Virus genome (UHGV): UHGV-2005248
DNA: 12,870 nt
Source: a virus
Direction: 5' to 3' (one strand)
The translations under genes and the position numbers were made by a program. Below the pieces are notes generated by a model. The model was not told the origin of the DNA. It was given only the letters and a program-made list of their open reading frames with translations, and did no database searches. Shown here one piece after another: positions 1 to 11,440 of this stretch; positions within the stretch are counted from its first letter, which is position 1, and every line of letters begins with the position of its first letter.

Positions 1-89
1 TAGCGCTGATGTCCGGCAGTGCTTTTGCCGTTACGCACCACCCCGTCAGTAGCTGAACAGGAGGGACAGCTGATAGAAACAGAAGCCAC
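1..89 (-). CDS. insA: IS1 InsA, N-terminal 29 codons only (gene runs off window start)
   Basis: Minus-strand translation from GTG at 89-87 gives [30 protein letters not shown], matching the InsA N-terminus as I recall it. Confidence 0.7.
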
Positions 90-144
90 TGGAGCACCTC
101 AAAAACACCATCATACACTAAATCAGTAAGTTGGCAGCATCACC
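1..144 (-). mobile_element. IS1 insertion sequence, terminal part (element continues past window start); 23-bp terminal inverted repeat at 122-144
   Basis: Reverse complement of 91-144 reads ggtgatgctgccaacttactgatttagtgtatgatggtgtttttgaggtgctcc, which I recognise as the IS1 end; reverse complement of 1-89 encodes the InsA N-terminus. Recognition from memory, not a database search. Confidence 0.8.
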
Positions 145-750
145 CCGAGGATTGAAAAGCTCAAATCTCTTGATGTTTCTTTTGTTTTTTGAGTAAAAGT
201 TTAAAGTGAAATATATTAGCACCTGTCTAAGATCGTAAACACTAAACTTCCTATCTCCTGATTTTATTTCCACAAGAACATTTGAATAATAAATATCGCC
301 ATATGAATTATTTATTACTCCGCATCCATCGAATTGTGGAGACACTTCAATTTGGTTTTCCATTCCATATCGAGACAAAATGTTTCTTGCTATTTCCCTT
401 ATGGCATTGTACTCAACCATGCTTAAGGGTAGCTTGAAGTTAGAACCGTAAGCGAACCGCTGTAGATATTCTTTTGTTTTTTCAAAAACAACCTGAAAAT
501 CAGCATTATGGAAGATATCATGTGCTGAAAGAATATTTCTGTCTAACGAATCATTCTGTATTGCCCTATATAAATTAAATGCGCACTCATTAACAAAGAC
601 GTTATTTGACCTATTAGCGCAGTCATCTAGAGGAGGATAAACGTCCTCGATGAGACTGCCGTTAATGATGCGTATGAAATTATTAGCATTTGGAAGCAAT
701 TGATTCCAAAATGAAGTGAATTTTCGAGAAAACGTTAATTCAGATATCAT
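118..750 (-). CDS. hypothetical RT-associated protein (candidate effector); 3' end disrupted by IS1, so the stop in the ORF track is not native
   Basis: 210-aa ORF whose start overlaps the RT stop by 4 nt. Its last 8 codons and stop (GDAANLLI, 118-144) are encoded by the IS1 terminus, so the native C-terminus is unknown. No hydrophobic TM segment. Weak D-x8-E-x-K pattern (GDIYYSNVLVEIK) that could be a PD-(D/E)xK nuclease motif. Confidence 0.55.
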   Translation of the reverse strand: MISELTFSRKFTSFWNQLLPNANNFIRIINGSLIEDVYPPLDDCANRSNNVFVNECAFNLYRAIQNDSLDRNILSAHDIFHNADFQVVFEKTKEYLQRFAYGSNFKLPLSMVEYNAIREIARNILSRYGMENQIEVSPQFDGCGVINNSYGDIYYSNVLVEIKSGDRKFSVYDLRQVLIYFTLNFYSKNKRNIKRFELFNPRGDAANLLI

Positions 751-2375
751 AGCGCATCCTCAAGATTTCTTGCGGTATGCCTTTTACTTGCCCAATCCCT
801 GTAAATCACCTCTACAAAGTTGAATGTTTTCTTATTATGCTCTCTCCAGTGCCGTCCTTCATCACCTAAGATGTAACTGGAAACGATCAATAGTCTTCTC
901 TGCAACGGATGCATTGCAGAGAAATTTTTTTTGATATCAGAAAGCCATGCGTAAGAATTAATTTTTGCCATTGACTGTGTAACTATGTTCTTGACTAAGA
1001 TGCTTTCTGGATTGTTATTGTATATTTCACTAAGGATTAGGGTGGATTTTTCTGAATTTTCTTTTGAGAGCATTCGGGCTACATAGGCTAAGTTGAGCTC
1101 AGTACTCAAAATATATGAATCTTGTTTAATTAGTGCAGTTATTTTATCAAGAATAATATCTTTGGTTTCTGTGCTTAATTTTTGCCAGTTGGAGTTAGCT
1201 ACTTGAATTATAGTTGTAAATATTGGATATAACTCATGCAAGTTATTAAACATTACTTTGAAAGCACTACTTATTATTTCATCTGATGTTGCTGAGAATG
1301 CCTTTATCAAATGCTTGCTAAAAGATTGGTTAATTTTTGATTTTTGTAACTCACTACTCAGCATAGCTAACAAGTCAAAATCTTTTAAAGATTCCTTTAT
1401 CTCTTCATATTCCTCTATCGCATTTGCTGAGTAAGGATCGAATCTTATAGGAAGACTCATAAATTTAGCCTTCATAGGAGATTCTTCATCTTCATCATTA
1501 CCATGCAACTTAGCTTTAGTTACTGAAAGGAACTCTTCTTTAGTAACAATATTGGTTTTTTGTTTCTGTAAAGTTAGCCCTTCATTTTCCATCAGTTTTT
1601 TACTAAGCAAAGTTAAAATCTTATGAGCATCCTCTCTAGAGTTACAAAAAATAACAAAGTCGTCGACATAACGCTTATAGTTGATTCTATTCATAGACAA
1701 TAATTTATCAATAGAATCTAGAGCTAGTTCTGCTAATATTCTAGAGGCAGGACATCCAACTGGTACTCCATATGATTTTGTTTCACTAAATGTCTGTAGT
1801 AATTTCTTGATTTTCCCAGAGTAATCTTTATTGGGGTCGACTCTATCTAACGCATTTTCTAAACGGTGGTGATAAATACGCGGATAGAAATCTGCTATAT
1901 CGCATGTAAGTACATACTTTATTTCATCGTTAGAACATTCAGAGATACTGTCTTCTTGATATTTTCTCCAAGAGATCTCTTTATCAAAAAGAGAACCATC
2001 AGCAAGGTTTGGTTTAAAGCGATATGAATAAACCTGCGTTTTAGTAGATCTATTCCTTTCAATATCATCAGCGATTTTTAAAACTAACCCAAGAAAAAAA
2101 GCATTCCAGAATGGATCAATTTGGGTCGCCCACCTGTAACCATAATAACCAATACTTGAAAAGCTATTAATTATGTTTGGTGGAATCTCGATCCTTTTAT
2201 TTTCAAAGTCATTAAATGTTTGCATTAATGCAGTTTTTACTTTCTCCTTATCATCTTCAAATAACCGACTTTCAAATGGGTAAGGGAAAATATCTGTATC
2301 GCCGTGCTTTATAATATTTTCCAATGCAAGCTCAAAGCAATTTTCTAGTTTACTACTATCAAACTCGTTACTCAT
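747..2375 (-). CDS. reverse transcriptase, Abi-class (AbiK/AbiA/Abi-P2-like) with long C-terminal extension
   Basis: 542 aa. RT palm motifs in canonical order: LTCDIADFYPRIYHH (motif A-like), YGVPVGCPASRILAELAL (motif B-like), YKRYVDDFVIF (YxDD catalytic motif), GLTLQKQKTNI (motif D/E-like). The pattern resembles AbiK as I recall it rather than retron or group II intron RTs. AAGGAG Shine-Dalgarno 7 nt upstream of ATG. Strongly AT-rich. Confidence 0.85.
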   Translation of the reverse strand: MSNEFDSSKLENCFELALENIIKHGDTDIFPYPFESRLFEDDKEKVKTALMQTFNDFENKRIEIPPNIINSFSSIGYYGYRWATQIDPFWNAFFLGLVLKIADDIERNRSTKTQVYSYRFKPNLADGSLFDKEISWRKYQEDSISECSNDEIKYVLTCDIADFYPRIYHHRLENALDRVDPNKDYSGKIKKLLQTFSETKSYGVPVGCPASRILAELALDSIDKLLSMNRINYKRYVDDFVIFCNSREDAHKILTLLSKKLMENEGLTLQKQKTNIVTKEEFLSVTKAKLHGNDEDEESPMKAKFMSLPIRFDPYSANAIEEYEEIKESLKDFDLLAMLSSELQKSKINQSFSKHLIKAFSATSDEIISSAFKVMFNNLHELYPIFTTIIQVANSNWQKLSTETKDIILDKITALIKQDSYILSTELNLAYVARMLSKENSEKSTLILSEIYNNNPESILVKNIVTQSMAKINSYAWLSDIKKNFSAMHPLQRRLLIVSSYILGDEGRHWREHNKKTFNFVEVIYRDWASKRHTARNLEDAL

Positions 2376-3552
2376 TCACATTCTCCTTAATAAAAATATA
2401 ATCTGAATACCACTGCATCATATCACGGCGTTTATCAATATATTGAGCATGATTATACGTACCTCTAATATTATTCTTATCTATATGAGCAAGCTGTATT
2501 TCTATCCAAGCCGAATCATATCCTTTTTCGTGGAGGATAGTAGATAAGGAATGTCGAAATCCATGACCAGTAAGTTTTCCACCATAACCAATACGCTTGA
2601 TAACTTGGTTAATACTCGCCTCACTCATAGGCTTGTTCGGATCGTTCCGCCCCGGAAAAACATAACTATACTTCCCTGTCATCATCTTGAGTTCATTTAG
2701 CAAATCTAACGCTTGAGTCGACAAAGGCACAAGGTGTGATCTGCGCATTTTCATCCTTTCAGCAGGAATTTCCCAAATAGCGTTATCTAAATCAAATTCT
2801 GACCATAATGCCGCACGTAATTCGATGGTTCTAACACCTGTAATCATGAGCAATTTCGTGGCAATCAGGACAAGCCGACTTCCGGTATATCCGTTTAAGG
2901 CGCGAAGAAAATCAGGTATCTCATTAGCCTTTAAGAACGGGAAATGATTTGATTGGTGTACATTGAGGGCGCTTGAAAGATCCGCAGCAGGGTTAAACTC
3001 AGCCCTTCCAGTAGCAATGGCATAGCGGAAAACTTCTGAGCATCGCTGCCGAACTTTGCGCATTTTTTCTAATGCACCGCGCTTTTCGATTTTACGCAGC
3101 ACATTAAGCAGTTCTAGCGGTTTAATCTCTCCCACTGGCCTTGTTCCCACATAAGGAAAAATGTCGTTCTTAAACGCTTCCATGATGTCTGATGCATATC
3201 CCGCCGACCATTTGGTAGACTTCTGTTGATGCCACTCTCTGGCTATCTTTTCGAAGGCGTTCTCTGACTCTGTTTGCAGAGCCAGCTTTTGCTCTTTTCG
3301 AACCTCACTAGGGTTCTTTCCTTCTGCCACAAGTTTTCGAGCTTCATCACGACGGGAACGAGCATCAGCAAGAGTGATCGTTGGGTAAACACCAAGCGAG
3401 ATCATTTTGGGTTTACCGGCATAGCGATAACGAAATCGCCAGCTTTTACTTCCATTTGGCTCTACAAGTAAAGACAACCCTTGCCCATCCCCAAGTGTAT
3501 AGGCTTTAGCTTCAGGTTTAGCACGGCGAATCTGCATATCATTTAGGGGCAT
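2368..3552 (-). CDS. int: tyrosine site-specific integrase, P4 family
   Basis: 394 aa. N-terminal Arm DNA-binding signature (AKAYTLGDGQGLSLLVEPNGSKSWRFRYRYAGKPKMISLGVYP ... RDEARKLVAEG). C-terminal catalytic region with HGFRHS box and terminal Tyr region RGTYNHAQYIDKRR. Immediately downstream of a tRNA 3' fragment in the same orientation. Confidence 0.92.
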   Translation of the reverse strand: MPLNDMQIRRAKPEAKAYTLGDGQGLSLLVEPNGSKSWRFRYRYAGKPKMISLGVYPTITLADARSRRDEARKLVAEGKNPSEVRKEQKLALQTESENAFEKIAREWHQQKSTKWSAGYASDIMEAFKNDIFPYVGTRPVGEIKPLELLNVLRKIEKRGALEKMRKVRQRCSEVFRYAIATGRAEFNPAADLSSALNVHQSNHFPFLKANEIPDFLRALNGYTGSRLVLIATKLLMITGVRTIELRAALWSEFDLDNAIWEIPAERMKMRRSHLVPLSTQALDLLNELKMMTGKYSYVFPGRNDPNKPMSEASINQVIKRIGYGGKLTGHGFRHSLSTILHEKGYDSAWIEIQLAHIDKNNIRGTYNHAQYIDKRRDMMQWYSDYIFIKENVNE

Positions 3553-3604
3553 GTGTATAGAATTCCAAAATCGAACAGGAACATATACATAATCCTATAC
3601 ACAT
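3551..3604. repeat. 10-bp perfect inverted repeat (atgtgtatag / ctatacacat) overlapping the integrase start codon; candidate operator or regulatory site
   Basis: 3551-3560 is the exact reverse complement of 3595-3604, with a 34-bp spacer. Confidence 0.3.
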
Positions 3605-3628
3605 TTAGTACTGGATTCTACTGGAAAG

Positions 3629-3700
3629 TTATGGACTAATACGAACAGTAAAAACAAAAAATCTTTTATAAAACAGTGCGGTTATGGATAAATACGGATG
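3629..3700. repeat. two imperfect 20-bp direct repeats (gttatggactaatacgaaca / gttatggataaatacggatg); candidate arm-type integrase binding sites
   Basis: 3629-3648 and 3681-3700 share 16 of 20 positions. They lie between the int start and the tRNA-derived att core. Confidence 0.35.
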
Positions 3701-3716
3701 TTTGAAGAAGTGGAGA

Positions 3717-3762
3717 TGGTGCCGATAATAGGAGTCGAACCTACGACCTTCGCATTACGAAT
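3717..3762 (-). other. 3' 46 nt of a tRNA-Thr(CGU) gene (anticodon loop through CCA end) = attachment-site core; not an intact tRNA
   Basis: Minus strand reads ATTCGTAATGCGAAGGTCGTAGGTTCGACTCCTATTATCGGCACCA (anticodon loop with CGT, T-arm GGTTCGACTCC, acceptor 3' strand, CCA). Sequence from 3763 onward cannot supply the acceptor 5' strand (no GCCGATA) or a D-arm. Confidence 0.75.
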
Positions 3763-4097
3763 TATAAGAATCCGCTTCTAATTCAAAGCATTACCCCATC
3801 AACACTGCGCTCACACGTCCCACCACATCAAAACATGTAAAGCCTTGCAAGCCATTGCGAGGCCTTATGTGTCTCAGTTTTGTCCCACCTTGTATTACGA
3901 CTTGCATAGCCAATGAAGATAAACGTGACGACAAACGGCGCAGCAGTCTTCTTTTCCTTCATACTTTCCCCACCCAGCATGCATACCTTCTACCATAACT
4001 GTAGTGAATGTCTGTTATGAGCGAAAATCGGAAGTTAGTGTCCTCATAATTTTGATAGAATGTTCGAACTTTTCCTTTCTAAGAAACTTGAGAAGTT

Positions 4098-4529
4098 ATG
4101 AAAAAATCACTCGTGCTAGTTATGTTTCTTTTCTCAGCTTGTGTTACTGCGAGTAATGACCTAGATCTATATGATAATCAAGGCAACGCCGTCGTTTATA
4201 TTTCACTTGATGACGAGTTGACTTTATATAGTTGGGAGGGTGAACCAAGCGCCTACCTTAAACATAACCAGAACAATGAGTTTGATGTTTATGGATTCAA
4301 TGGGAATCATTTAGGCTGGTTTACTAATGGTATGTTGATTGATCACGATGGCTATGTTGCCTGTGCAGTAAAAGACATGGTTACCACACCTAATTTGCCA
4401 TCACTTAAATCACTTAAGAGCCTCAAGCCTCTAAAATCGCTAACGGAACTTCCCCCTCTTTTCCCGCTGCTAAAAAATGCCTTTGGTCAGACAAATTGTT
4501 CTTTGTTAGTAGCTTCAGGTGTTGCATAA
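4098..4529 (+). CDS. hypothetical exported protein, possible lipoprotein, with short SLK tandem repeat
   Basis: 143 aa. N-terminal signal-peptide-like segment MKKSLVLVMFLFSAC with Cys after a lipobox-like FSA. AT-rich. C-terminal PSLKSLKSLKPLKSL repeat. Confidence 0.5.
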   Translation: MKKSLVLVMFLFSACVTASNDLDLYDNQGNAVVYISLDDELTLYSWEGEPSAYLKHNQNNEFDVYGFNGNHLGWFTNGMLIDHDGYVACAVKDMVTTPNLPSLKSLKSLKPLKSLTELPPLFPLLKNAFGQTNCSLLVASGVA

Positions 4530-4889: not shown

Positions 4890-5222
4890 TTAGACGTAAA
4901 TATCAATGGTGCCAGCGGTATTTGTATCGTCTTTTTTCTCTTCTTTTTTATCAGGCTGAACTGTCGCGTCTTCATTCTTTTTCTCTGCCTGCTGCCTTAA
5001 CAACTGCTCCAGTTGAGCCCTGAGGCTTTCAATTTGCTTCTGTACCAATGCAGCCATTTCTTTTTTCTGCTGTGTCGTCATCCCCTCTTCCGATGAGATT
5101 TTCCCAAGCTTTTCAGTCAGCACCTGAATTTGTCTTGTGATTTTGGCTATTTCTGATGTTCCTTCCGGGGCGGAGTTGTTTGAAATAACGGTTGAGGTAT
5201 TTCCCTGAATTGTGACAGACAT
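4890..5222 (-). CDS. flxA: FlxA-like protein (FliA-regulated small coiled-coil protein)
   Basis: 110 aa with a Q/K/E-rich coiled-coil middle (MAALVQKQIESLRAQLEQLLRQQAEKK); size and composition fit the FlxA family. Preceded by a near-consensus sigma-28 promoter and an AAGGAG Shine-Dalgarno. Confidence 0.7.
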   Translation of the reverse strand: MSVTIQGNTSTVISNNSAPEGTSEIAKITRQIQVLTEKLGKISSEEGMTTQQKKEMAALVQKQIESLRAQLEQLLRQQAEKKNEDATVQPDKKEEKKDDTNTAGTIDIYV

Positions 5223-6023: not shown

Positions 6024-7973
6024 ATGATTGTTCTAAATCAGATTAACTCCTCACTTTTGTACAATGTCGCTTACAGGTATACCATGAAATCCGAGACGCT
6101 AACTGTCCAACAACTTTTTCAAGACCGCCGACAATACTGCGTTCCATTCTATCAACGTGCCTATGTATGGACTCAGCGAAACCAATGGTCAGCTCTACTG
6201 GAGGATATCCTAGAGAAAGCACAATCCCGGCTCTCGGGTACAAAACCAACTCCCCATTTCCTTGGTGCAGTGGTACTGGAACCTCAACCAAAAAAAGGAT
6301 TATTAGGTGTAGATTCCATACATATTATTGATGGTCAGCAACGATTGACCACTCTTCAATATGTTCTGGCATCCATCCGATTAGCATTACGTGCGACAGA
6401 TCTTTCCAACTTAGAGCCTCTCATTTCGTCTTGCCTGAAAAACTCAAACGAAGACACAATGCGAAATAAAGAAGTAGAGCGCTTCAAACTGTGGCCAACT
6501 TTTCGGGATCAAACTCATTTTATTCAAAGTTTTAATGTTGAAAATATTGACGATATCCGGAATGTATTCTCTGATAGTTTCACGCAGCATGGTACGTTGC
6601 GTAAGCATTTTAATCACCCGCCATCACTAGAAGCATTATGTTTTTTTACTGAAGCCTTTATAAAGTGGATTAAAATAGAAAATCACTCACCACGAGAAAA
6701 TGCTGTAGCATTAATTGAGGCTGTCTTGACGGATCTGAAACTAGTAAGCATATTTCTCGAGGCTGAAGATGACGCTCAAATAATTTTTGAAACATTAAAT
6801 GGCAGAGGTGCGGAACTTCATGCCACAGATCTTATTCGCAATTATATTTTTATGTGCGCTGAACATGAAAATATTAATGCTGTTGAATTATATGAGAATG
6901 AGTGGAAGATCTTTGAAGATACGTACTGGTCAGAAAGACAACGTCGTGGTCGTATTAATAAACCACGCATGGAGTGGCTAGTGCATGCGACATTGCAATC
7001 AGAAAGGCAACGTGAAATCGATCTGTCTCGTCTTTACAATGAGTATCGTGATTATGTAAGTAAGGACTTGCCTTCACAACGAGCAGATCTGCAAGTAAAG
7101 CGCCTCAAACAATATGCATCACAATATAAAGAATTGGTTGGTGGTTTTGGCACAACCCCCATCTCACACTTTGGACATCGCATCGCAGCCTATGATGTGA
7201 CGACACTTTATCCGCTTGCTTTGTTCATTTCGATAGCTAACATCGCCGATGATGAGAAAGCAGCCATGTATAATGATCTTGTCTCCTACGTAGTACGAAG
7301 AGCCGTATGTGGCCTGACGCCAAAGAATTACAACAATGTATTTATGAATGTATTGCGGCACTTGTCTAAAACGGAAATTTCCAGTGTTGAGTTACGTAAT
7401 ATCCTCAATAGCTTAAATGGCGAAGCCTCACGTTGGCCTGGGGACTCAGAATTTCTCAACGCTTGCATCAATGCTCCACTTTATCCTGGCAGGCTCGACG
7501 CACCGAAAATGCGCTCAATGTTAACGGAACTTGAAAGAGAACTTTGTCGCCAAGTGAAGACAGAGAAGCCTGATGTTCCAAATCTTTCTAACCTCGATAT
7601 CGATCATCTTATGCCTCAAAGTTGGTATTCCTGTTGGCCTCTCGAAAATGGTCATATGGTGACAAATTCAGATGCTACGGTATTGAACCAAATTGTTCTG
7701 TCTGGAACCGATCTTACCCCTGAACAGCTACTGGTAAGGAAACGGCAACAAGCGATAGCTACGTTGGGAAATCTAACATTGCTTAACCTTAGCGTAAACC
7801 GTTCTGTTCAGAATGCTGTATTTCTGAAAAAACGTGATGCTCTCATCGTCCACACCAATCTACGACTGAACATTCCACTTATAGTTAAGGATAAATGGGA
7901 TGAGGATGAAATCCTGGAGCGGGGTAAAAAGTTGGGGGAAATTGCATTGAAAGTATGGCCAAAACACGATTAA
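6024..7973 (+). CDS. GmrSD-like type IV (modification-dependent) restriction endonuclease, DUF262 + DUF1524 fusion
   Basis: 649 aa from the first ATG; the more likely start is ATG 6084 (MKSETLTV...), which has an AGG upstream. N-terminal DUF262/ParB-like signature including IIDGQQRLTTL. C-terminal His-Me finger (DUF1524-like) DIDHLMPQSW ... GNLTLLNLSVNRSVQN. Confidence 0.75.
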   Translation: MIVLNQINSSLLYNVAYRYTMKSETLTVQQLFQDRRQYCVPFYQRAYVWTQRNQWSALLEDILEKAQSRLSGTKPTPHFLGAVVLEPQPKKGLLGVDSIHIIDGQQRLTTLQYVLASIRLALRATDLSNLEPLISSCLKNSNEDTMRNKEVERFKLWPTFRDQTHFIQSFNVENIDDIRNVFSDSFTQHGTLRKHFNHPPSLEALCFFTEAFIKWIKIENHSPRENAVALIEAVLTDLKLVSIFLEAEDDAQIIFETLNGRGAELHATDLIRNYIFMCAEHENINAVELYENEWKIFEDTYWSERQRRGRINKPRMEWLVHATLQSERQREIDLSRLYNEYRDYVSKDLPSQRADLQVKRLKQYASQYKELVGGFGTTPISHFGHRIAAYDVTTLYPLALFISIANIADDEKAAMYNDLVSYVVRRAVCGLTPKNYNNVFMNVLRHLSKTEISSVELRNILNSLNGEASRWPGDSEFLNACINAPLYPGRLDAPKMRSMLTELERELCRQVKTEKPDVPNLSNLDIDHLMPQSWYSCWPLENGHMVTNSDATVLNQIVLSGTDLTPEQLLVRKRQQAIATLGNLTLLNLSVNRSVQNAVFLKKRDALIVHTNLRLNIPLIVKDKWDEDEILERGKKLGEIALKVWPKHD

Positions 7974-8223
7974 TGCAATTAATAAAATGATTATAGCGGC
8001 TTTACATTAGTAAGGCCGCTACTCACTATTAAATCCTTTAATTTGCAACAAGAACAGCAGTGTCAGCCCTAGGTTTCGGACTTTGTACCGCTTATCTTGT
8101 CTTCAAAAATCAGCTCGCATCCTGCACAGCTCAACGCATTACGTTGTAGATCGGTGTTCTGGTCATTTGTTGATACGCGTACATAGCCAATAAGCATGGT
8201 AGCTCCCCCTGACAAAAGCAGGA

Positions 8224-8559
8224 ATGATGCCATTTGCTCGTTATTTCTGCATTTTCATAAACGTTGGTTTTGGAGAAGGTGCTAACTGGGTTATGTTACC
8301 TGGAGGAATGATAATTCAGCGTGTTTATCTTGGATTTCCTGTTGGCACCAATGTAAGACACATAACTCTCCCCCGGTCGTTTACAACAACGAACTATTCC
8401 ATCTCAATTAACTGGAATGATATCGGTACTGTAACAACTGAAACACAATCGCCAGCAAATGTGGCGGTTGTTCATCAAACAAAATCATTAACAGGGGCCA
8501 GCATCTGGCAGGCAGGTCCCGGGGGATTTAATGTGGACATTATAGCGGTGGGGTATTGA
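8224..8559 (+). CDS. tail-fibre C-terminal fragment (alternative variable tip, S'-like), likely remnant
   Basis: 111-aa ORF ending 2 nt before the plus-strand tfa. Frame is closed upstream at 8200-8202. Position mirrors the tail-fibre tip genes of invertible segments; no recognisable motif. Confidence 0.35.
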
Positions 8560-8560
8560 T

Positions 8561-8989
8561 ATGTACGTATGGAGCGCTAAAGCAAATGGCTTTTTCCCCA
8601 TATCGGAGAAAGAAAAATTTGAGGCATCAGGTCTGTGGCCTGATGATGGTGTAATAGTCAGTGAGGAAGAACATAAAAAGTTATTTATGGATATTCCACC
8701 AGGAAAACAGATTGGAACACTGAATGGAAAACCAGCACTGATAGATATTCCTCAGCCGACCCAAAAGGAATTAATAGCTATTGCTGAAGTTAAAAAATCC
8801 CAATTACGGGAAAAAGCTGACAGTGAAATATCCTGGCGTCAGGATGCTGTTGATGCTGATATCGCAACTGATGAAGAAACTTCAACTCTCACCGAATGGA
8901 AGAAATACCGAGTGCTGCTGATGCGTGTTGATACTTCAACAGCACCCGATATTGAATGGCCTACGCCTCCGGCAGTTCAGGCCAGATGA
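8561..8989 (+). CDS. tfa: tail fibre assembly protein (Tfa chaperone)
   Basis: C-terminus [23 protein letters not shown] is the conserved Tfa C-terminal signature (compare TfaE ...[23 protein letters not shown] as I recall it). Confidence 0.85.
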
Positions 8990-9566
8990 CATCCGGCGCG
9001 GTGCTGGGATCTGTTGCCGTCACCGCGTCAATGTAATCCAGCACAGCGTTAAGCCGGGTTGTTTCTGCCTGCGTCAGTTTCCGCCCGGCCTGTAATTTCA
9101 GCTGAATCAGACTAATGGAAGCCATTGCTGCATCAATCAGTGACTGGCGCTGTGCTTCTGCCGCTTCTACTGCGGCGCTATGCTGTGCCTCAGTATCGGT
9201 CACCCATTTCTCACCATCCCATTTATCGTATGGCGTTAATGGGGCGATAGTGGTTGTATTTTCAGGGTAATCACCCGGAACTGTGATTTCTCTGGTATCT
9301 CCCGTTTCGGTACTATAGACAACTTCACCGCGATGGTCTGGCACATATTCCCATGAATTTAAATCTACAGAGCGACAGATTGCATAACCAGCTTTATGTA
9401 TACCTGGTGCATCCAAACAGGAACATGCCGGGATACCGACGCCGACAGCGAGATATTCAGTTGATGTAGAAATATATTCCCGCGTTTCACCATCATAATT
9501 ATAAATGATAATGTCTCCTGCTTTTATGGCAATGAGTTCGCTATTTAATATAGCTTTATTCATCAT
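8961..9566 (-). CDS. tfa: tail fibre assembly protein (second, divergent Tfa)
   Basis: 201 aa. Tfa-like core ([14 protein letters not shown]) and C-terminal [14 protein letters not shown]. Start overlaps the tail-fibre gene stop by 4 nt. Converges on and overlaps the plus-strand tfa by 29 nt. Confidence 0.8.
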
Positions 9567-10237
9567 GCGGCCCTCACAATATAATTAAAAGCGATGTTAC
9601 GAGGACGAGTTTCTGTACCTACATTTCCACTAATTTCACCATAACGTTTAACACTACGAGAGCTAAGAGCTCGTAGTGAGGAAGGCACCTTAAGACCGGG
9701 TTCGTCCGTTTTAACTATTCCCCCGTCACCGTATGTAGCCAGTATTCCTGGGTTTACTCCTTCCCGTGCACTTCCTGCGGCGAGTCCGTCCCCTGTCCAT
9801 AATTCCATATAGTGTGCATGGTCCAAAATTGTGTGTGGCTGCCAATTAAGCAAAGCGCGACCAGTATCAATCCCGCGACCGTCATCCCAGCCACGAATAA
9901 ATTCACCGCGTAAATCAGGCAATTTATTGGTCTGGTAAGCCTTTGCCAGTTCCGGGTATTCTTCAGCAGAAAAAGCCGCACCATTGCATTTCAGCCAGCC
10001 TGTTGGCGGAGTGGCTGAGGGCCACGGAACAGGCACACCAACGGGTAATGCCGAACCTTCTCCCAAACCAAGGTTTTCGAGAGCCGTTTTCACCGTGCCA
10101 TCCGATTTGATATCGCCAAACGGATTCTTGCGGCTTAACAGCAGCGCACGAAGCGCGGTAAGCAACTGGTCGTGCCGCCCCTTCTCCAGGCTGGCACCGG
10201 ATGCCTCCACCACGCTGCAAAGCTCCTCCTGCAACAT
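9563..10237 (-). CDS. tail fibre protein, C-terminal part with phage tail-collar domain (5' portion missing)
   Basis: Collar-domain-like motif [40 protein letters not shown]. The frame stays open upstream of the first ATG to 10339, then hits a stop beside N-gene-derived sequence. Confidence 0.7.
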
Positions 10238-10854
10238 GTCAAAGTAGTCATCATCCAGATCGGTGGCAGGCGTGCCTGTCTGGGGGTTACCACGGGTAAA
10301 ACCGTTCTTACCCGCGCCGAACTTATCCTTCTGCGCGGTTTACCGATAACGTCGTTCTGCACGAAATCCGCCACACCATCGATACTGAAACCGCTGAAGC
10401 TGTCACTGATGCAGTCATCCAGTGCAGAACAGGATGACATCAGCGTCTGCGCCGTCGCCGCACCTGATGTGGGGTAAGAGAGTTCTCCTGCTTCGACAAA
10501 CTTCAGGTCAAAGCGGACAATACGCCCTTCACTTTTCGATGTGCTGACCCGAACTTCCCCGTCAACACAGACTTTCAGCTCACCATATGTCGGGTGGACA
10601 AGCGTGCCGGGACCGGGTTTATTCAGCGCTTCAATCAGGCGATCGCGCTGGTCAAAGCAGTCATCTCCCACCACATAAGCTGTGATGGACGGGCGGAAAG
10701 TGACTTTTCCCAGATCTTCGGTATAGGGCTTGTCGCGGTTCGGGTATTCATGTGTTTCCACACGGCGACCGGTTCCCGCACTTTCTTCTTCAACCTTAAA
10801 CGGCACACCTCGAAATGACGCATCCTGTAGCCTGTCTTTCCACGTCATATACAC
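10135..10854 (-). pseudogene. Mu-like DNA circulation protein N, N-terminal fragment; reading frame degenerates after about aa 170
   Basis: N-terminus MYMTWKDRLQDASFRGVPFKVEE..RRVETHEYPNRDKPYTEDLGKV..AYVVGDD..RDRLIEALNKPGPGTLVHPTYG fits the DNA-circulation N-terminal domain pattern as I recall it. The last ~70 aa of the ORF are R/C/W/P-rich, out-of-frame read-through of tail-fibre sequence. Confidence 0.6.
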
Positions 10855-10909: not shown

Positions 10910-11440
10910 TTAGCGGGTCAGAAACAACGAATCTTTATACTTTTGCTGTTGTTCATTTAAATACTTAGCTGTTTCATCGCTGGCAAATGGAAATATTACC
11001 GTATTTTTAGGCATGGTAATTTCTTTTTTGTCCAGCGTCAGAGTAAACATAGGAACATACTGAGCAGAGTAACGCACCGCAGAAACGAGCTCTAGTTTAG
11101 ACTCTTCAATAACACTTAAATTATCCAGGCTAACTTTCTCTTCATCTTTTTTCTTTGACGCATTTAAAGTTTTTATTACTTTATTTAATTTCTCCTGAAA
11201 ATCCTCCTTAAAGTTTTCAGGATTGCCGTCGACAACAAGAATCTGTTCACCCTGATTATCTGGAAAAATAATCTTTGCACTTATCAATTTATTTTCTTTA
11301 TAAACATCACCAAGTTTTATGGCTCCTCCAGATAACTGAATAATATGTTCATCTTTAAAGGAGATGTTGCCAGAGATTATGAGAGATGAAAAAATAGCCG
11401 CTGCTCCAAGAATTACACTTGCTGTGATATAGCCTTTCAT
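10910..11440 (-). CDS. hypothetical membrane-anchored protein (AT-rich moron inside tail module)
   Basis: 176 aa. Single N-terminal hydrophobic helix ITASVILGAAAIFSSLIISG, then a K/E-rich soluble domain. Markedly more AT-rich than the flanking tail genes. Has its own terminator. Confidence 0.6.
   Translation of the reverse strand: MKGYITASVILGAAAIFSSLIISGNISFKDEHIIQLSGGAIKLGDVYKENKLISAKIIFPDNQGEQILVVDGNPENFKEDFQEKLNKVIKTLNASKKKDEEKVSLDNLSVIEESKLELVSAVRYSAQYVPMFTLTLDKKEITMPKNTVIFPFASDETAKYLNEQQQKYKDSLFLTR

Follow-up and report, generated by a model that had tools for sequence, protein, structure and literature searches.

The window, that is, the whole stretch of 12,870 nucleotides that was analyzed, contains the integrase-side end of a P4-like phage satellite that is inserted in E. 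coli at the thrW site (tRNA-Thr). The locus at this end very probably carries, in the psu-int hotspot of the satellite, a DRT type 8 (DRT8) system, in which a Class 1 UG/Abi reverse transcriptase (RT) of the UG7 group is paired with a RecB/Cas4-like PD-(D/E)XK nuclease (246 aa when intact). This is the best explanation overall, because the two genes match the PADLOC profiles Drt8 and RTasPDDEXK, the RT and the integrase (int) are identical to RefSeq proteins encoded beside an intact 246-aa partner, and a tRNA-Thr half-site is present. In this copy the nuclease gene is interrupted by IS1, and the system is probably inactive. Integrase, RT and soluble partner are all encoded on the minus strand, chained by overlaps of 8 and 4 nt:

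3717-3762, minus strand: copy of the 3' half of tRNA-Thr (46 nt, anticodon loop to CCA), identical to the final 46 nt of the tRNA-Thr annotated beside proA
2368-3552, minus strand: P4-type tyrosine integrase of 394 aa, identical to WP_001130497 (Arm-DNA-bind_3, Phage_int_M, Phage_integrase); its last 8 nt, stop included, are also the first 8 nt of the RT gene
2383-2388, minus strand: AAGGAG Shine-Dalgarno sequence for the RT, within the 3' end of int and 7 nt before the RT ATG (junction sequence ATTAAGGAGAATGTGAATGAGTAA)
747-2375, minus strand: RT assigned to DRT8 (UG7), 542 aa, identical to WP_000064054; matches PADLOC Drt8 and RVT_1
1647-1670, minus strand: RT catalytic motif YVDDFVIF (Y236-F243), with V237, D238 and D239 invariant in 42 homologues
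753-1421, minus strand: RT aa 319-541, a C-terminal domain made up of helical repeats only (alphaRep-like), as predicted in the AF2 model
118-750, minus strand: truncated DRT8 partner gene (RTasPDDEXK or "cluster 17" PD-(D/E)XK nuclease); native codons 1-202 occupy 145-750, and 118-144 hold 8 IS1-derived codons and a stop
262-297, minus strand: nuclease catalytic core D152-x8-E161-x-K163 (GDIYYSNVLVEIKSG), with D152, E161 and K163 invariant in 43 homologues
211-225, minus strand: Q176-x-x-x-Y180 motif of the partner
1-143, minus strand: left end of IS1, comprising the terminal inverted repeat GGTGATGCTGCCAACTTACTGAT and the first part of insA, interrupting the nuclease gene after codon 202; window and contig end within IS1

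DRT type 8 was described as the association of a UG7 (variant 1) RT with a "cluster 17" PD-(D/E)XK nuclease (Mestre et al., 2022, NAR 50:6084, PMC9226505). A member of the family protects E. coli against T5, mutation of the active site of either the RT or the nuclease abolishes defense, and UG7 has been reported in P4-like hotspots (PMC9226505). The present locus shares with this system the gene order, the overlap of the two genes, the catalytic motifs and the residence in a P4-like hotspot; it differs in that the nuclease gene is cut after codon 202 of 246. The original prediction, a two-gene anti-phage RT module with a soluble PD-(D/E)XK partner, agrees with DRT8, for which defense by a family member is published (PMC9226505); its claim that this architecture is new does not hold. 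A two-gene Abi RT system distinct from all described UG/Abi systems is highly improbable here: AbiK, Abi-P2 and DRT4 are indeed single-gene systems, no NCBIfam model names either protein, and the partner, recognized by PADLOC only, has no Pfam family and is labeled "hypothetical protein" in RefSeq, but both proteins match dedicated PADLOC DRT8 profiles and the pair of RT and nuclease has been described and validated as DRT8/UG7 variant 1 (PMC9226505), which refutes the proposal. Publications already cover the system, its architecture of two genes, its activity against phages and its residence in P4 hotspots, and both genes are recognized by standard defense-finder profiles, so the locus matters little as a discovery.

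The RT matches the Drt8 profile with E = 4.9e-166 and 552 bits (profile positions 4-492 of 493), followed by RT_UG21 as the second-best PADLOC profile (128 bits); Pfam RVT_1 also matches (E = 1.2e-18). Besides the catalytic motif, the protein contains DIADFYP (aa 159-165), PVGCPASRILAEL (aa 205-217) and GLTLQKQKTNI (aa 266-276). The motifs, gene overlaps and Shine-Dalgarno sequence that had been predicted are all present on the minus strand. A retron, group II intron or DGR origin of the RT, with an incidental neighboring ORF, is extremely improbable. A weak palm-domain likeness to group II intron and retron RTs exists, seen in NCBIfam TIGR04416 (78 bits), in retron_St85 (56 bits) and in PDB palm matches, but these scores lie far under the curated cut-offs (300 and 235 bits, respectively) and the Drt8 score far exceeds them. 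Furthermore, Rfam gives no match for intron, retron or DGR RNAs, the full-length predicted fold is that of Class 1 UG/Abi polymerases with an alphaRep domain, and the partner is linked to the RT at every sampled locus. Placement of the RT in one of these clades, which the original prediction had considered, was rejected on scores and is refuted for practical purposes. Class 2 UG/Abi systems with an ncRNA template (DRT2, DRT3, DRT9) were likewise rejected: no Rfam match and no conserved non-coding block flanking the pair was found across 9 loci, in E. coli the RT gene begins within int, leaving zero intergenic space upstream, and NCBIfam Drt2 and Drt3a/b score far under their cut-offs.

The AF2 model of the RT (pLDDT 89) consists of helices only over aa 319-541, and the C-terminal ~240 aa are non-RT. 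The best full-length Foldseek matches are DRT4/UG15, DRT6 (TM 0.59/0.64), Abi-P2, AbiA and AbiK. Judging from this model, the RT is predicted to group with DRT4, DRT6 and the Abi polymerases, i.e., with the untemplated and protein-primed enzymes of Class 1. DRT4 (UG15) and DRT6 (UG12), its best structural relatives, have in common with it the RT palm and fingers and the C-terminal helical-repeat domain; they also defend against T5, and by analogy protein-primed untemplated ssDNA synthesis would be a likely shared mechanism. However, they are only 14-17% identical to this RT, the NCBIfam Drt4 model scores 76 bits (cut-off 450), and both are single-gene systems that, instead of a dedicated nuclease, use host exonucleases and a phage 3'-end-binding protein. 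The proposal of an Abi-class RT is borne out by the UG/Abi Class 1 fold, the C-terminal alphaRep domain and the full-length matches to AbiK, AbiA and Abi-P2 (Foldseek E 1e-9 to 1e-10, ~500 columns), systems that share the same abortive-infection logic. This likeness is at the level of the fold only, and membership in these three groups was rejected: AbiP2 scores 82 bits versus 552 for Drt8, and AbiK and AbiA are absent from the best 25 PADLOC matches. In contrast to the present pair, AbiK, Abi-P2 and AbiA belong to separate UG/Abi groups and are single proteins (AbiA with a HEPN domain), none of them with a PD-(D/E)XK partner. Candidate priming tyrosines of the RT are Y118 and Y315; the equivalence of Y118 to the priming Tyr125 of DRT4 remains a guess, the profile alignment beginning only at DRT4 residue 133.

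The partner matches RTasPDDEXK with E = 6.7e-61, but only over profile positions 1-187 of 226; its intact homologues extend to positions 221-225. The predicted D-x8-E-x-K element is real and is retained in the window. In addition to its three residues, R167, D173, R175, Q176, Y180, N184 and N200-P201-R202 are invariant, and all of these precede the IS1 junction; the invariant N-terminus (MISE..F..FTSFWN) is specific to the family. The QxxxY motif is typical of RecB/Cas4-family nucleases. A fold search with the predicted structure places the partner with RecB/Cas4/MGME1-like ssDNA nucleases. Nevertheless, identity to PD-(D/E)XK nucleases of the RecB/Cas4/MGME1/Dna2 type is only 7-15%, the four-cysteine Fe-S cluster signature of Cas4 is absent (only C143 is conserved), and, unlike these enzymes, the intact partner (246 aa) stands by itself as a protein devoted to an RT. 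As had been predicted, the partner has no transmembrane helix: the maximum 19-aa Kyte-Doolittle mean is 0.84 and the predicted model is globular. Searches gave no match in PHROGs and nothing meaningful among PDB sequences with the partner profile (interferon gamma, E = 0.35). At E ≤ 1e-10 the family comprises 740 cluster representatives (clustering at 50% identity); almost all of those listed are 230-246 aa long, with the profile matched to position ~236-244.

RT and partner form a conserved pair, joined by a 4-nt overlap in all 9 of the independent loci sampled, from alpha- to gammaproteobacteria; the possibility that the two never co-occur elsewhere, also raised at the outset, is contradicted by this linkage. 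In the window, the RT stop and the partner start share ATGA, and in the intact pair the nuclease is translationally coupled to the RT. The int stop and the RT start overlap within ATGAGTAA. Because the RT ribosome-binding site lies within int and the genes overlap, transcription probably runs through int. In a promoter scan, promoter-like sites were no more numerous than in shuffled sequence. The "operon fusion" to int that the original prediction described is real and occurs also in Yersinia and Serratia, where the junction is a 3-nt gap or a 4-nt overlap and the integrases are ~40% identical, but it is no property of DRT8 as such. The pair is found without an integrase in Thalassospira, Pseudoalteromonas, Acinetobacter and other loci. 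It is very unlikely that the coupling of int to the RT is functional, in the sense that satellite DRT8 would be expressed within the integrase operon, with defense co-regulated with integration and excision or with the pair contributing to satellite biology; a lesser variant of this idea is that the IS1 truncation would turn two-gene DRT8 into a working RT-only system like partner-less UG7.

The P4-like satellite ends at the tRNA-Thr half copy (3717-3762), which represents its att site on the integrase side. The match to other satellite copies ends at 3758-3815, and the window contains no intact tRNA. About 105 complete E. coli genomes carry an identical but intact int-RT-partner locus, situated between psu and int, and the P4-like elements with the intact allele carry alpha primase, icd, delta/ogr and psu. 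The psu-int interval of P4 satellites is reportedly a defense hotspot (Rousset et al., 2022, Cell Host Microbe 30:740). The locus resembles it in its cargo, a defense system, and in the exact position of identical alleles: those identical over window positions 145-3758 sit between psu and int in complete genomes. It differs in that the window holds int and the att half-site without the psu side, which lies beyond IS1 and the contig end, and in that the satellite here belongs to a series of degraded elements arranged in tandem at thrW. Judging from the adjoining P4-type int and the identical alleles, this copy probably occupies the hotspot as well.

The match to the intact allele stops at window position 144, and the IS1 terminal repeat begins at 143/144; thousands of E. 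coli records annotate the sequence of positions 1-144 as IS1-like transposase elements. Partner residues 1-202 are identical to the 246-aa protein WP_000622599 up to R202, and the last 8 codons of the 210-aa ORF (GDAANLLI*) are read from the IS1 terminal repeat, so that the native C-terminal 44 aa of the nuclease are lost and replaced by 8 IS1-derived aa. A problem caused by IS1 had been suspected from the start, but 210 aa was still taken as the size of the partner; this is the length of the truncated allele (202 native and 8 IS1-derived residues). The lost part is predicted to comprise strand 205-210 and helices 211-244, and it includes M203, G204, I205 and F239, each at least 90% conserved. 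Because IS1 removes one core β-strand and three helices, DRT8 would most likely be inactive in this copy.

A truncated copy that still works, either with a sufficient 202-aa core or with the RT acting alone like partner-less UG7 and host nucleases supplied in trans, is rather unlikely. Every invariant catalytic residue is retained, but a predicted core β-strand and three helices are missing and nearly all of the family representatives listed, out of 740, are full-length. Both int and the RT are intact, with sequences identical to those of other strains. About half of the UG7 RTs have no nuclease partner (165 members), and the nuclease has been suggested to be accessory or supplied in trans (Mestre et al., PMC9226505); thus, the RT may keep part of its function without the partner, and the IS1 allele might not be wholly inactive. 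In the partner-associated variant, however, mutation of the nuclease active site abolished defense (PMC9226505). Several assemblies of gut metagenomes retain the allele (68 sequences make up the P0008 cluster), yet the IS1::nuclease junction occurs in 0 of 5,426 complete E. coli genomes; no complete E. coli genome carries the whole window, and all finds of the truncated allele are metagenome contigs likewise ending in IS1. The locus offers a clear natural case of a satellite-borne defense system that IS1 has probably inactivated (or remodeled).

For intact DRT8, the mechanism was listed as "not yet established" in an overview of May 2026 (PMC13213688), and a literature search found no published one. 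The structural pointers obtained here, namely the RecB/Cas4/MGME1-like fold with QxxxY, the Class 1 RT fold and the tyrosines Y118 and Y315, may help such work. DRT4, DRT6, AbiK, Abi-P2 and AbiA synthesize ssDNA from a protein primer without using a template, T5 ORF55 triggers DRT4, DRT6 and DRT9, and the ssDNA made by DRT4 is kept harmless by host 3'-5' exonucleases (PMC12783706). The mode of DNA synthesis, the trigger and the role of the nuclease proposed below for DRT8 are extrapolated from structural relatives that are 14-20% identical. As in AbiK, Abi-P2, AbiA, DRT4 and DRT6, an RT oligomer would constitutively make ssDNA without a template, primed from its own tyrosine. Infection by a T5-like phage would alter the fate of that DNA, e.g., through a phage protein shielding its 3' end. 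The nuclease may then, tentatively, be the executor that degrades DNA; it might possibly instead process or release the RT-bound ssDNA into an active or toxic form. Both roles are suggested by its likeness to enzymes acting on ssDNA ends and by the requirement of its active site for defense. The outcome would be abortive infection.

Alternatively, the nuclease could be a housekeeping "antitoxin" that clears uninfected cells of the ssDNA made by the RT, as host ExoI does for DRT4, and be neither effector nor maturation enzyme. This is quite unlikely. The control of DRT4 ssDNA by host exonucleases is a precedent, the modeled fold of the partner resembles ssDNA exonucleases, and the tight translational coupling suggests a fixed stoichiometry. 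However, nuclease active-site mutants lose defense and do not become toxic or hyperactive (PMC9226505), and selection should act against an IS1 knockout of an antitoxin-like gene beside an intact RT, yet this allele recurs.

The locus, in a P4-like satellite at thrW, holds a copy of the published DRT type 8 (DRT8) system that IS1 has truncated, and as such is already known. Its three ORFs follow one another head-to-tail, all on the minus strand of the window:

118-750, minus strand: partner ORF, 210 aa (ORF call)
747-2375, minus strand: reverse transcriptase (RT), 542 aa (Pfam RVT_1, E 1.2e-18)
2368-3552, minus strand: P4-type integrase (int), 394 aa (domains Arm-DNA-bind_3, Phage_int_M and Phage_integrase)

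The original prediction, made from the sequence alone, is confirmed as an observation: RT, partner and P4-type integrase are present, with the tight junctions it described. The int stop and RT start overlap by 8 nt (common sequence ATGAGTAA), and an AAGGAG 7 nt upstream of this overlap places the ribosome-binding site of the RT within int (2368-2388); the RT stop and partner start overlap in ATGA. The quoted RT motifs were located at aa 159-165, 205-217, 236-243 (YVDD) and 266-276. The partner contains the D-x8-E-x-K element (D152-x8-E161-x-K163) and, having a maximum 19-aa Kyte-Doolittle mean of 0.84 and no hydrophobic stretch, is soluble, with no TM helix.

The further claim that an RT plus a soluble nuclease forms an undescribed architecture is wrong, because Mestre et al. 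(2022, PMC9226505) already describe exactly the same system. A UG7 variant, congruent with the phylogeny, is linked to "cluster 17", a remote PD-(D/E)XK homologue; the pair, reconstituted in E. coli K-12 and named DRT type 8, gave robust protection against T5. The anti-phage function first proposed was correct. Defence was abolished by mutating either the RT catalytic site or the PD-(D/E)XK active site, and UG7 also occurs in P2/P4 variable regions (PMC9226505). PADLOC profiles identify both proteins. The RT matches Drt8 (E 4.9e-166, 552 bits, profile positions 4-492 of 493); RT_UG21 comes second (128 bits), and AbiP2 scores 82 bits. The partner matches RTasPDDEXK (E 6.7e-61) over only profile positions 1-187 of 226; intact homologues extend to positions 221-225. 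Membership of Drt2-5, retron or group II intron RTs was rejected, all NCBIfam scores being far under the cut-offs.

The RT-partner pair is a real unit, as its neighbourhood conservation makes plain. In all nine independent contexts examined (Thalassospira, Pseudoalteromonas, Morganella, Yersinia, two in Serratia, Acinetobacter and two metagenomic) an RTasPDDEXK gene follows the RT with a 4-nt overlap, at identities to the window down to 46% for the RT and 33% for the partner. The partner has a ribosome-binding site, GAGGA, within the final codons of the RT (RT C-terminus 750-770, partner N-terminus 738-750). The family shows no variation in the partner N-terminus (M-I-S-E, then TF..KFTSFWN.LLPN) or in the last RT residue, L542. 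Together these features suggest that translational coupling of the pair is conserved, and the invariant residues possibly reflect a contact between RT and nuclease. On one metagenomic contig, a GmrSD-DUF4268 gene stands directly after the DRT8 pair. Outside the window, an 896-aa metagenomic protein (P0180) combines protein-kinase domains (PF07714/PF00069) with a fused UG7-like RT, which shares 56% identity with the RT of the window.

The coupling of int to the RT, originally termed an operon fusion, is also real, and it is seen again in two other genera. A gap of 3 nt separates int from the RT start in a P4-like element of Yersinia (L013 4366-4370), and a 4-nt overlap joins the genes in both Serratia contexts, one of them a tmRNA-site island (L015/L016 4355-4358); the P4-type integrases of these loci are only 39-40% identical to that of the window, against 60-66% for the RTs. 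Other lineages carry the pair without any integrase and with its own upstream region of 120-370 nt. Most simply, this reflects readthrough from int into whatever cargo comes first in the hotspot; int and RT may be functionally co-regulated.

The RT is 100% identical to WP_000064054 and the integrase to WP_001130497, and window positions 145-3758 match E. coli ECCRA-119 base-for-base. The intact int-RT-partner block is found in about 105 of 5,426 complete E. coli genomes, where the pair lies between psu and int of a P4-like satellite (alpha primase-helicase, icd-like, ogr/delta, psu). Rousset et al. (2022, PMC9122126) defined this psu-int site as a defence hotspot. The integrase-proximal att site of the satellite is the following:

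3717-3762, minus strand: exact 46-nt copy of the tRNA-Thr 3' half, from anticodon loop to CCA (sequence match)

ARAGORN detected no whole tRNA in the window; in related genomes, the intact tRNA-Thr adjoining proA lies ~8-10 kb further on. Rightwards from the att site, the window runs into a different, degraded island, and thrW appears to hold a stack of several degraded elements. Just past the att site of the same satellite, ECCRA-119 (L001 12117-16370) encodes a DUF4062 protein, an HTH protein and a 568-aa RT-domain protein, a second, different RT and candidate RT-based defence locus; the window DNA at this position is different.

An IS1 end occupies window positions 1-143, and the last eight codons of the partner ORF (GDAANLLI, then stop) derive from the IS1 terminal repeat. 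As far as R202, the partner does not differ from the 246-aa RefSeq protein WP_000622599, the junction falling directly after the invariant N200-P201-R202. All catalytic residues are kept despite the insertion; the predicted strand 205-210 and helices 211-244 are lost. An exhaustive profile search (E<=1e-10) gave 740 representatives of 50%-identity clusters. The lost C-terminal 44 aa are a conserved part of the domain, because nearly all representatives listed stand alone, have a length of 230-246 aa and align to the profile as far as position ~236-244. On the predicted structure, the fold is probably compromised, and this DRT8 copy is likely to be non-functional. Neither the IS1 junction nor the whole window occurs in the 5,426 complete E. 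coli genomes searched. The truncated partner forms a cluster of 68 member sequences, on human-gut metagenome contigs where its neighbours are those seen in the window and which likewise terminate in IS1.

In fold comparisons, the partner model scored highest against MGME1 (10.2), the AdnAB nuclease domain (10.0), Dna2 (9.7) and Cas4-family ACE1 (9.1), with Exo5, RecE, RecB, AddA, Cas4 and lambda exonuclease lower. The model thus places it in the PD-(D/E)XK branch acting at single-stranded DNA ends. The residues invariant in the family fit this assignment: D152, E161, K163 and R175-Q176-x-x-x-Y180, a QxxxY motif of the kind typical of RecB-family nucleases. In the model of the RT (pLDDT 89), aa 319-541 form a repeat domain made up of helices only. 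Among PDB structures, the RT is matched best over its full length by DRT4/UG15, DRT6 (TM 0.59/0.64), Abi-P2, AbiA and AbiK, so that in fold it is likest the Class 1 UG/Abi polymerases.

AbiK, Abi-P2, AbiA, DRT4 and DRT6 are oligomeric, protein-primed, template-independent ssDNA polymerases; the product of DRT4/DRT6 is cleared by host exonucleases until T5 ORF55 shields its 3' end, upon which ssDNA builds up and the cell dies (PMC12783706). The mechanism of DRT8 was still "not established" in a May 2026 overview (PMC13213688). Its RT would synthesize protein-linked, untemplated ssDNA, which would be the substrate of the dedicated RecB/Cas4-like nuclease. Three observations agree with untemplated synthesis: Rfam has no match anywhere in the window, the loci compared share no conserved flanking non-coding element, and in E. 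coli there is zero intergenic space upstream of the RT. As for priming, our guess falls on two candidate residues, the invariant Y118 in the palm and Y315 in a conserved RT-alphaRep linker (D313-P314-Y315-S316) modelled with low confidence; the profile alignment to DRT4 falls short of the region with Y118. Elsewhere the priming residues are Tyr125 (palm) in DRT4 and Tyr298/303 (linker) in AbiA (PMC12783706). The nuclease may plausibly be the executor, licensed by the RT product, or, almost as plausibly, may process or release the RT-bound DNA. That it is purely housekeeping is improbable; a positive role is favoured because nuclease-dead mutants lose defence rather than turn toxic.

The island beyond the att site contains the following features:

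4098-4529, plus strand: Bflower (4-fold beta-flower) protein gene
4890-5222, minus strand: FlxA-like gene
6024-7973, plus strand: full-length GmrSD-type type IV (modification-dependent) restriction enzyme (Pfam GmrSD_N and GmrSD_C; PADLOC mREase_IV, 1440 bits)
8069-8233, minus strand: N-terminal fragment of a Pin/resolvase-type invertase
8224-8989, plus strand: tail-fibre C-terminus gene
8961-9566, minus strand: tail-fibre-assembly gene
9563-10237, minus strand: Collar-domain ORF
10135-10854, minus strand: DNA_circ_N protein ORF, only 239 aa, overlapping the Collar-domain ORF
10910-11440, minus strand: 176-aa ORF of low GC (~0.33) with a hydrophobic N-terminus (KD 2.11); full-length match to phrog_5485 (unknown function)

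The GmrSD gene is a second defence gene, ~2.3 kb past the att site. The Bflower and FlxA-like genes occupy the interval between the two; in related genomes (L003, L004) it holds IS3 insertions or a type ISP restriction-modification enzyme. The Pin-like fragment adjoins tail-fibre and assembly genes of opposite orientation, and 8069-9566 resembles an invertible host-range segment that has decayed. Next come the remains of a Mu/P2-like tail module (Collar, DNA_circ_N, tape measure). This module is internally deleted, since related genomes such as L003 hold baseplate genes between Collar and DNA_circ_N. The 176-aa ORF is an insertion, flanked by the DNA-circularisation and tape-measure genes of this GC-richer module (~0.52-0.57), and is possibly a moron.
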